Below are positions 12,106 through 13,956 of a stretch of DNA of 38,347 bases, one piece after another (position 1 is the stretch's first letter; every line of letters starts with the position of its first letter). The notes beneath the pieces are model-generated. The model was not told where the DNA came from and did not search any database. It saw only the letters and a list, made by a program, of their open reading frames with translations. A program made the translations under genes and the position numbers. Location: positions 1 to 38,347 of the IMG/VR virus record IMGVR_UViG_2718218452_000008; one strand, 5' to 3'. The DNA is from a virus. Taxonomy: Duplodnaviria; Heunggongvirae; Uroviricota; Caudoviricetes.

Positions 12106-13956
12106 ATGTCGATTAAACATTATGATGTTGTCAGGGCGGCGTCGCCGTCAGACCTTGCGGAAAAGCTGACACACAAACTGAAAGAGGGCTGGCAGCCATA
12201 TGGCGGACCGGTTGCCATTACGCCGTACACACTGATGCAGGCGGTGGCTATTGAAGGAGAGCCACAGGTCGGCCCTTCATCTGAGCCGGATTGGTACTAC
12301 GTCATCGTACTGGCCGGGCAGTCCAATGCCATGGCTTACGGTGAAGGGCTTCCGCTGCCGGATTCATACGATGCTCCGGATCCGCGCATTAAACAGCTGG
12401 CGCGCCGCAGTACAGTGACGCCGGGCGGGGCTGCCTGCAGATATAACGATATTATTCCGGCTGACCACTGTCTGCATGATGTGCAGGATATGAGTACGCT
12501 GAATCATCCGAGGGCTGACCTGAGCAAAGGGCAGTACGGCTGTGTCGGCCAGGGTTTACATATTGCCAAAAAACTGCTCCCGTATATCCCGAATAACGCG
12601 GGGATCCTGCTGGTACCATGCTGTCGTGGTGGTTCGGCATTTACCCAGGGCGCGGAGGGGACATTCAGCGAGTCCACGGGGGCCAGTCAGGATTCGGCAC
12701 GCTGGGGGGTGGGCAAGCCGTTATATCAGGATCTGATTTCCCGCACAAAAGCGGCATTGCAGAAAAATCCCAAAAACGTTCTGCTGGCCGTCTGCTGGAT
12801 GCAGGGTGAGTTTGACATGAGCGCCGCCACCCACGCACAGCAACCTGCGCTGTTTACAGCCATGCTGACACAGTTTCGTGCTGACCTCTCCGTGTTTAAC
12901 GCGCAGTGCCATGGTGGCAGCGCTGCAGATGTGCCGTGGATTTGTGGTGACACGACGTATTACTGGAAAAATACATACGCTACCCAATACGACACCGTGT
13001 ACGGCGGGTATAAAAACAGGGAGAGTGAGGGCGTTTATTTTGTGCCCTTCATGACAGACGGTAACGGCGTCAATACCGCCACTAACGCGCCGGCAGAAGA
13101 TCCGGATATTCCGGCATCAGGATATTACGGTGCGGCATCGAGAACGAATGGAAACCAGGTATCATCAAACCGCCCGACACATTTCAGTTCATGGGCGCGC
13201 AGGAGCATTATTCCGGATCGTCTGGCAACCGCTATTCTGAACGCAGCCGGGCGCACCTCAGCCTTCATCAGTGGTAAGGCACCGGAAATCAAACCCTCGC
13301 CCGGCGGCAACACGCCATCGGGTCCGTCTGCAGATACGTCCGTTCGCACAATCTCCCTGCTGCCGGCAGCCGGAGAGGCTGCTGCGCAGGGCTGGAGCAT
13401 TAAGGATGGCGGAATTCAGTTGTCAGATGGTGTATTTAAGATCACCAAGCAGAGCAATAAAACCTGGTCCCTGACGCATCCGGTGGATGACGCAATTACC
13501 CTGCTGACACAGGGCGGCAGACTGACCTGTAAGTTCCGCCTGTCAGGCGCACTGACCAACAATCAGTTCGGGCTGGGGATTTATCTGTATACGGATGCTC
13601 CCGTTCCTGATGGTGTGGCGATGACGGGTACCGGTAATCCGTTCCTGATGTCGTACTTCACTCAGACCACTGACGGCAGAGTGAATCTGATGCATCACAG
13701 GAAAGCCGGAAACACGAAGCTGGGGGAGTTCGGCGATTACGGTAACGACTGGCAGACGCTGGAGCTGGTGTTCACCGCCGGCAGTGCCACGGTTACTCCG
13801 AAACTGAATGGAGTGGCTGGCCCGGCATTCCAGGTTATAAAAGACAGTCTGACACTGGGACTGAATGCGCTGACGCTGACGGATGTTACAAAAAATGCAG
13901 CGTATGGCGTTGAGATAGAAAGTCTGGTGCTGGAGATAAATGCACCGGCAGCATAA
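12106..13956 (+). CDS. nanS-p: NanS-p-like sialate 9-O-acetylesterase (SASA/SGNH hydrolase domain), 616 aa
   Basis: VLAGQSNAMAYGEG block (GQSN motif of SASA esterases) and a position between the Q/tRNA block and the holin, as for prophage nanS-p genes in EHEC. GGGAGA Shine-Dalgarno. Confidence 0.8.
   Translation: MSIKHYDVVRAASPSDLAEKLTHKLKEGWQPYGGPVAITPYTLMQAVAIEGEPQVGPSSEPDWYYVIVLAGQSNAMAYGEGLPLPDSYDAPDPRIKQLARRSTVTPGGAACRYNDIIPADHCLHDVQDMSTLNHPRADLSKGQYGCVGQGLHIAKKLLPYIPNNAGILLVPCCRGGSAFTQGAEGTFSESTGASQDSARWGVGKPLYQDLISRTKAALQKNPKNVLLAVCWMQGEFDMSAATHAQQPALFTAMLTQFRADLSVFNAQCHGGSAADVPWICGDTTYYWKNTYATQYDTVYGGYKNRESEGVYFVPFMTDGNGVNTATNAPAEDPDIPASGYYGAASRTNGNQVSSNRPTHFSSWARRSIIPDRLATAILNAAGRTSAFISGKAPEIKPSPGGNTPSGPSADTSVRTISLLPAAGEAAAQGWSIKDGGIQLSDGVFKITKQSNKTWSLTHPVDDAITLLTQGGRLTCKFRLSGALTNNQFGLGIYLYTDAPVPDGVAMTGTGNPFLMSYFTQTTDGRVNLMHHRKAGNTKLGEFGDYGNDWQTLELVFTAGSATVTPKLNGVAGPAFQVIKDSLTLGLNALTLTDVTKNAAYGVEIESLVLEINAPAA

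Follow-up and report, generated by a model that had tools for sequence, protein, structure and literature searches.

The locus described here raises the question of whether a prophage-borne sialate O-acetylesterase is only accessory cargo that is set free when the host cell lyses, or whether its product is also tied to the phage capsid. The gene, nanS-p, lies in IMG/VR record IMGVR_UViG_2718218452_000008, a 38,347-nucleotide sequence from a tailed phage (Caudoviricetes), and the whole of this stretch is referred to below as the window. The initial annotation of the window had described a 616-amino acid (aa) NanS-p-like sialate O-acetylesterase as late-operon cargo, and an open reading frame (ORF) of this length is present exactly as claimed, at 12106-13956. 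The gene itself is nothing new, as it belongs to a characterised family and RefSeq annotates the exact protein as an SASA family carbohydrate esterase. Wider interest attaches only to its N-terminal DUF1737 domain (aa 4-49), which the initial annotation had missed and whose class co-varies with the type of phage head. This suggests that NanS-p may be functionally tied to the capsid and may not be a free-riding moron.

Domain architecture and predicted activity of NanS-p

Pfam matches to DUF1737, SASA and DUF6645 in the protein all exceeded the gathering scores. SASA (PF03629) matched aa 66-262 (E = 1e-12), and the GQSN motif lies at aa 71-74. The initial annotation had proposed an SASA/SGNH core with this motif, and the domain search that it had suggested as a check returned the expected family. 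The catalytic domain was identical to that of Escherichia coli NanS (YjhS; PDB 3PT5) at 183 of 316 residues (58%). SGNH blocks I, which is the GQSN motif, and V, which contains His359, were both present, and the segments CCRGGSAF (aa 172-179) and WMQGEFD (aa 231-237) each differed from NanS at one residue. Ser73 and His359, the predicted nucleophile and general base, aligned to a Ser and a His at chain indices 30 and 312 of 3PT5. We take these to be Ser19 and His301 in the numbering of NanS, which fits if the tag offset is 11.

The long C-terminal extension noted earlier was also found. It contains DUF6645 (aa 467-577, E = 4.5e-18), and aa 421-613 matched PDB 6YP6, which is a crystallised NanS-p C-terminal domain (E = 8.7e-30). 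This domain of NanS-p is a lectin-like jelly roll for which carbohydrate binding has been proposed (Pascal 2023; PMC8065619). Between DUF1737 and the esterase there is a linker rich in Pro, Ser and Gly (PSSEP, aa 50-62), in which the SISSP motif of phage phi24B is not conserved. By these matches, the protein has all three parts of the NanS-p architecture, namely a NanS-like catalytic domain, DUF1737 and a lectin-like domain. In PHROGs, the protein had a full-length match to phrog_143, a family without assigned function. NCBIfam gave no match for the 616-aa protein. The solved homologues 3PT5 and 6YP6 settle the fold of two of the three domains, whereas our copy of the PDB yielded no solved structure for DUF1737.

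A hydropathy scan of NanS-p showed no signal peptide, no hydrophobic N-terminus and no membrane segment. The Kyte-Doolittle maxima were 0.5 as a 9-residue mean within the first 40 aa and 0.88 as a 19-residue mean anywhere in the protein. Export by the Sec route is therefore impossible, and a secreted or periplasmic enzyme was rejected.

The gene starts with ATG, and E. coli C7 encodes the identical protein (RefSeq WP_073519349.1). Against 38 distinct alleles of the same length, the ratio of nonsynonymous to synonymous substitution rates (dN/dS) was 0.15 overall, and 0.08 for the esterase, 0.21 for DUF1737 and 0.36 for the C-terminal domain. The identical RefSeq protein and the low dN/dS together indicate that this is not a chance ORF, and by this ratio all three domains are under purifying selection. 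Some match to the 3.8-kb nanS-p region was present in 4,857 of 5,426 complete E. coli genomes, and 654 of them had it at a coverage of at least 80%, at a median of two sites in each genome.

Prophage NanS-p enzymes of E. coli EDL933 and O104:H4, including z1466, have been reported in reviews to be active on 5-N-acetyl-9-O-acetylneuraminic acid (Neu5,9Ac2), and as recombinant proteins to de-O-acetylate mucin O-glycans and to permit growth on Neu5,9Ac2 (reviews, including PMC8065619). The Ser and His of NanS were found to be catalytic by mutagenesis, according to a review (PMC10017367); what tells against a complete assignment is that the acidic member of the SGNH triad has not been identified even in NanS (PMC10017367). 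On the evidence of the architecture, the conserved Ser and His and the gene's position, it is very probable that the product is a functional prophage NanS-p, a predicted sialate 9-O-acetylesterase that would be expressed from the late operon and released at lysis. The gene has ecological relevance in showing that the same mucus-sialic-acid enzyme whose contribution to the fitness of enterohaemorrhagic E. coli has been discussed is also present in lambda-type prophages without stx, in E. coli from commensal and livestock settings.

Comparison with known relatives

CPT_434_71 of phage 434 (OL657226), annotated as "SASA family carbohydrate esterase", was identical to the protein at 614 of 616 residues (99.7%; the differences are I279V and V608M). 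Phage 434 shares with the window the terminators that flank nanS-p, the ribosome-binding site, the class II holin and the lambda-type head. It differs in its upstream accessory genes, and with the proteins encoded here its major capsid protein shares only 61% identity and its gpD only 58%. No functional study of CPT_434_71 was found. Phage 434 offers a tractable system in which to ask whether lambda-type capsids display NanS-p.

The NanS-p proteins of 933W (L0105/z1466) and phi24B (vb_24B_21, which is gp84) were 57% identical to the protein over its full length. They share the order of DUF1737, SASA esterase and jelly roll, the GQSN Ser and the His, and their genes occupy the same place in the late operon, between Q with the tRNA genes and the holin gene S. 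Compared domain by domain with phi24B, the esterase was 72% identical but the C-terminal domain only 36%. The anchor loop of DUF1737 is three residues shorter here than in phi24B and 933W (class A versus class B, see below), and the first linker is 14 aa shorter. The phage described here is an stx-negative lambda-type siphovirus, whereas 933W and phi24B are podoviruses of the genus Traversvirus with T=9 capsids. The identification as a NanS-p-like sialate O-acetylesterase therefore stands, at the level of sequence comparison, on the three-domain architecture, the match to 3PT5 with its Ser and His, the match to 6YP6 and the position shared with L0105/z1466 of 933W.

Chromosomal NanS has the homologous SGNH domain with the conserved Ser and His; the 3PT5 chain has 337 residues and matched from residue 17 to residue 332, and it therefore has neither DUF1737 nor a lectin-like domain. 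NanS is a Neu5,9Ac2 esterase needed for growth on that sugar, and it is encoded in the nanCMS operon, which is inducible by N-acetylneuraminic acid (Neu5Ac) and is not a phage late operon (PMC10017367).

Association between DUF1737 class and head type

Were DUF1737 a capsid adaptor, one would expect its class to go with the head type of the phage and not with the neighbouring genes. We collected 211 IMG/VR loci with NanS-p homologues and their 10-kb flanks, and the association was counted on 62 dereplicated loci. Four head types (lambda-like, 933W-like, H3 and H4) were set by the downstream terminase and portal genes. Residues 1-33 of NanS-p were nearly invariant among the DUF1737 classes, and the differences between them lay in the loop that a 2026 preprint on phi24B (10.64898/2026.04.10.717836) calls the capsid anchor. 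The classes and their distribution over head types are given in Table 1.

Table 1. N-terminal classes of NanS-p homologues and number of dereplicated loci with each head type
Class	Anchor loop	Carriers	Lambda-like	933W-like	H3	H4
A	ITPYTLMQ	this window, phage 434	23	0	14	2
B	TAGYGAEFIQ	933W, phi24B	0	11	1	0
C	YTDDGAALIQ	VT1-Sakai	0	0	0	11
Rare N-terminal class	unrelated, without DUF1737	L148, L151, L152				

The mutual information between head type and DUF1737 class was 1.11 bits out of an entropy of 1.94 bits (1.02 bits after adjustment), a value reached in 0 of 5000 permutations. For the rest of the protein, called the body type here, it was 0.67 bits against a permutation mean of 0.30 bits, which leaves an adjusted value of 0.37 bits as the difference. 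Among the lysis genes, the adjusted values with head type were -0.02 for the holin, 0.03 for the endolysin, 0.13 for Rz and 0.17 for Rz1, and the upstream genes (RusA, DUF968, the Q types and stxA/B) gave 0.28 bits or less. Given the body type, DUF1737 class still carried 0.55 bits of information on head type, versus 0.11 bits carried by the body type given the DUF1737 class. The body cluster of phi24B (93% identity) combined with all three classes, as it was found with class B and 933W-like heads at 5 loci, with class C and H4 heads at 7 loci, and with class A and lambda-like or H3 heads at 5 loci.

Our analysis thus links the 5' end of nanS-p statistically to genes at a distance of more than 4 kb, although the DNA in between shows no such association with them. 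Linkage alone would not be expected to give this pattern. Linkage or lineage structure as its cause was largely rejected, as the intervening and upstream genes reached at most 0.28 bits versus 1.0 bit for DUF1737.

The GenBank phages repeat this pattern. Only 12 GenBank records had an H4 terminase at an identity of at least 99%, and 11 of the 14 class C records were among them. The class C exceptions are Stx1 phages, one of which is a named recombinant. AP005153/NC_004913 carries class C without an H4-type terminase. At loci L148, L151, L152 and L177-L181, the 5' end of the nanS-p ORF, over some 110-120 codons, encodes not DUF1737 but an unrelated N-terminus (about 119 aa, MTSKWVQLSS...), which had no Pfam match.

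Possible attachment of NanS-p to the capsid

In phi24B, gp84 is among the most abundant virion proteins. A hexamer of its DUF1737 plugs the central hexon of each face of the T=9 capsid, the anchor being a loop with a Tyr42 "tooth" in the hexon pore, and the esterase and lectin domains are cleaved off later (10.64898/2026.04.10.717836). The corresponding loop in our protein reads ITP, a three-residue gap and YTLMQ, against TAGYGAEFIQ in phi24B; Tyr41 is present, and the alignment does not fix its equivalence to Tyr42.

From the class-head association and the precedent of phi24B we infer that this copy of NanS-p may be tethered to lambda-type capsids, in which case the lambda-type capsid of this prophage would be what the class A DUF1737 has to bind. 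That class A DUF1737 tethers NanS-p as an oligomer to the hexons of this capsid is a serious candidate, to which we give a little less than equal credence. The broader proposal, that NanS-p is a modular capsid-displayed enzyme whose DUF1737 is an exchangeable adaptor, diversified into three or more loop classes that each suit one head type, with class A serving lambda-type (T=7) and HK97-like prophage capsids, is held tentatively. If this were true, the class-head association would be the population-genetic footprint of a contact between DUF1737 and capsid, and lambda-type virions would bring a sialate O-acetylesterase into mucus. The co-variation gives independent support, from sequences only, for the recent cryo-electron microscopy claim that NanS-p is a virion protein, and extends it.

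Virions of other viruses carry glycan modules that serve as analogies only. Hoc of phage T4, a capsid decoration protein that binds glycans, has no enzyme activity. The receptor-destroying esterases HEF of influenza C virus and HE of coronaviruses join a lectin to a sialate 9-O-acetylesterase. If tethered through DUF1737, NanS-p would by analogy be a virion-displayed mucus-glycan module like Hoc, HEF and HE, and no homology is claimed.

Several observations weigh against tethering. In phi24B the binding site lies on a T=9 capsid, at its flat central hexon, but the head encoded here is of lambda type and has a gpD-like decoration protein. A lambda-type head has T=7 and no hexon at the centre of the face. 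Class A is promiscuous, being found with lambda-like (23), H3 (14) and H4 (2) heads, and sub-classes within class A gave no clean division between lambda-like and H3 heads. This window and phage 434 share one DUF1737 sequence in spite of the divergence of their major capsid proteins. The loci are related prophages, so that the counts are not independent events; when each combination of DUF1737 class and body type was counted once, all 13 combinations were consistent by majority. KJ909655 (L219; 1640-3586, 8067-14275), the named recombinant, has class C with a Traversvirus (933W-type) head. Since mismatched phages exist, the contact between class and head, if real, is not essential. Finally, the tape measure gene of our prophage looks frameshifted, and the prophage may be tail-defective, so that infectious virions may not form.

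The best-surviving alternative, which we consider about as plausible as the adaptor proposal and also short of probable, is that NanS-p is pure cargo. It would then be a soluble public good freed at lysis, and DUF1737 would have no capsid role in lambda-type phages, serving for example only oligomerisation or stability. The gene sits in the variable slot between Q and S that is home to stx and other accessory genes, hairpins flank it, and its G+C content (55.6%) is above that of its flanks and the window mean (51.1%). The lambda-type head already has its own gpD-like decoration protein, class A is shared by three head types and by phages whose major capsid proteins are only 61% identical, and there are mismatched recombinants. 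However, the tie of DUF1737 class to head type across more than 4 kb of non-associated DNA, which comprises the rest of nanS-p and the lysis cassette, argues against this explanation, as does the homologous DUF1737 seen on the capsid hexons of phi24B (10.64898/2026.04.10.717836). DUF1737 is moreover under purifying selection (dN/dS 0.21), and nanS-p has no promoter-like site of its own, unlike a classical moron. The "late-operon cargo" of the initial annotation therefore holds for the late region, and the word cargo has to be qualified in view of the virion decoration in phi24B and the co-variation of DUF1737 with the head.

Less likely is that the true substrate is bacterial rather than mucin of the host, such as O-antigen, a capsule (O-acetylated polysialic acid, for instance) or a different glycan of the envelope, and that the enzyme modifies receptors and so aids receptor access by the progeny or their escape from debris. 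A review has raised this possibility (PMC8065619), virion display as in phi24B would fit an adsorption-related role, and the far greater variation of the C-terminal domain than of the esterase (36% versus 72% identity to phi24B) is a pattern typical of host-range determinants. On the other hand, the same review states that there is no experimental evidence for it (PMC8065619). NanS, with which the catalytic domain shares 58% identity, serves the sialic-acid regulon as a dedicated Neu5,9Ac2 esterase, and the activity of recombinant NanS-p proteins on Neu5,9Ac2 and mucin O-glycans, with the growth on Neu5,9Ac2 that they allow (reviews), likewise argues for a host sugar. We regard a bacterial substrate as unlikely.

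That nanS-p is an inactive remnant in a decaying prophage, as its damaged neighbours (a TerB-like gene with an in-frame stop and a tape measure split over two frames) might suggest, is very improbable, and a pseudogene was rejected, because the ORF is full-length, the catalytic Ser and His and the three domains are intact, dN/dS is 0.15, and the protein is identical in another strain and only 2 aa away from that of the viable phage 434.

Late-operon setting of nanS-p

The features of the nanS-p region and of the head genes are collected in Table 2. The initial annotation had placed the gene between the tRNAs and the lysis genes. This position was borne out, but the gene does not abut the tRNA genes, as a TerB-like pseudogene and a DUF3927 gene intervene.

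Table 2. Features of the window relevant to nanS-p (positions in the window)
Feature	Position	Strand	Basis
Late-gene antiterminator Q (Q82-like)	9876-10565	+	RefSeq annotation of the 99.6% identical C7 prophage; phage 434 annotation
Candidate late promoter pR' (TTGCAA-17-TATATT), overlapping the end of Q	10549-10577	+	consensus scan; inferred
G+C-rich palindromic hairpin about 50 nt 3' of candidate pR', candidate tR'	10629-10652	.	terminator scan; inferred
Three tRNA genes: CAT-anticodon Ile/Met, Arg-TCG, Arg-TCT	10776-11025	+	ARAGORN; RefSeq; 933W annotation
TerB/TciA-like pseudogene	11199-11627		in-frame TAG at 11331-11333
DUF3927 (tciB-like) gene, intact	11624-11791		
Intrinsic terminator-like hairpin with T-run, 87 nt 5' of nanS-p	11993-12019	+	scan; phage 434 terminator at equivalent place
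Shine-Dalgarno GGGAGA, 6 nt 5' of nanS-p ATG	12094-12099	+	sequence reading; phage 434 ribosome-binding site annotated at equivalent place
nanS-p coding sequence, 616 aa, 65.7 kDa, stop codon included	12106-13956	+	ORF list; full-length PHROG match
DUF1737 domain (PF08410), aa 4-49, loop class A (ITPYTLMQ)	12115-12252	+	Pfam E = 2e-15; alignments
NanS-like SGNH/SASA catalytic domain, aa 60-379	12283-13242	+	PDB 3PT5, E = 9.7e-123; Pfam SASA
Ser73 codon (GQSN, SGNH block I), predicted nucleophile	12322-12324	+	aligned to Ser, 3PT5 chain index 30
His359 codon (THFSS, SGNH block V), predicted general base	13180-13182	+	aligned to His, 3PT5 chain index 312
C-terminal lectin-like jelly-roll domain, aa 421-613 (DUF6645 core aa 467-577)	13366-13944	+	PDB 6YP6, E = 8.7e-30; Pfam
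G+C-rich hairpin with minus-strand T-run, directly 3' of nanS-p stop	13964-13993	-	scan; phage 434 terminator at same place
Lysis cassette	14247-16477	+	ORFs; RefSeq annotation
Class II holin	14247-14453	+	
Endolysin (lysozyme)	15141-15674	+	
Rz, with embedded Rz1 (16230-16415)	16010-16477	+	
gpD-like head decoration protein	23686-24033	+	RefSeq annotation; 58% identical to phage 434 gpD
gpE-like major capsid protein	24091-25119	+	RefSeq annotation; 61% identical to phage 434 major capsid protein

The candidate pR' has the same position relative to Q as pR' of 933W, and phage 434 has a terminator annotated right after Q, as the candidate tR' is here. A consensus scan showed no promoter-like site between the terminator-like hairpin at 11993-12019 and the ATG of nanS-p. 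The promoters and terminators were called only by their match to a consensus, which limits the case for late expression, but at equivalent positions phage 434 has the corresponding features in its curated annotation. This layout points to Q-dependent late transcription of nanS-p. Genes of this family are known from non-Stx prophages, and expression of other alleles was measured to rise under inducing conditions (Pascal 2023), a rise that a review also describes (PMC8065619). The lysis cassette would provide the release route for NanS-p, a protein without a signal peptide.

On prophage induction, Q-modified RNA polymerase would pass the terminators, and NanS-p would build up in the cytoplasm alongside the virion and lysis proteins. 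Lysis by holin, endolysin and spanins would then free it. Outside the cell, it would strip O-acetyl groups from free and mucin-bound Neu5,9Ac2, and its C-terminal domain would probably keep it on glycans. The resulting Neu5Ac would be open to the sialidases of other bacteria and afterwards to uptake and catabolism by surviving sibling lysogens through the Nan pathway. Part of the NanS-p may ride on capsids and be displayed in mucus until the linkers are cut, by analogy with class B on phi24B.

The order of the tRNA trio is that of ileZ-argN-argO in 933W. The first of these was called Met (CAT) by ARAGORN, and Ile (reading AUA) in RefSeq and in the 933W record. Between the holin and endolysin genes there is an ORF of about 90-104 aa on the minus strand (14709-15023), which is a hypothetical protein in RefSeq and had no Pfam match. 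A PerC-family transcriptional activator (16943-17257; Pfam E = 4e-44) lies between the spanin and terminase genes, and represents a regulator-type accessory gene in the late region.

The host prophage

Over positions 1-29616 the window matched, at 99.6% identity, a prophage of the E. coli strain C7, which came from a cow. The prophage is lambdoid, with a DicA/DicC-type immunity region, RusA and a Q82-like Q according to the RefSeq annotation. Its head and tail module consists of a lambda-type terminase, a portal, an S49 protease, the gpD-like and gpE-like proteins and a siphovirus tail, and no match to the terminase large subunit, portal or major capsid protein of 933W was found in the window. 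A Shiga toxin (Stx) phage was rejected, as there is no stx gene and the slot used by stx in Stx phages holds the TerB-like pseudogene and the DUF3927 gene.

Past 29616, in the distal tail genes, identity to the C7 prophage dropped to about 76-81%, and rose again to 97% at 36618-37063. Relative to the best-matching genome, the tail region from 29616 to 38347 is thus mosaic. The tape measure gene (28499-30264) is split over two overlapping frames (28704-29657 and 29428-30264) and falls short of its counterpart in the C7 prophage by about 0.8 kb; the same allele in a second C7 prophage is flagged as "frameshifted" by the Prokaryotic Genome Annotation Pipeline (PGAP).

An accessory cluster was found in the early right region (4157-7630). 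It comprises genes for an SMEK-domain protein (4157-5056, plus strand), an S-adenosylmethionine (SAM)-dependent methyltransferase (5371-6024, minus strand), a hypothetical protein (6037-6732, minus strand) and the hokD toxin (7475-7630).

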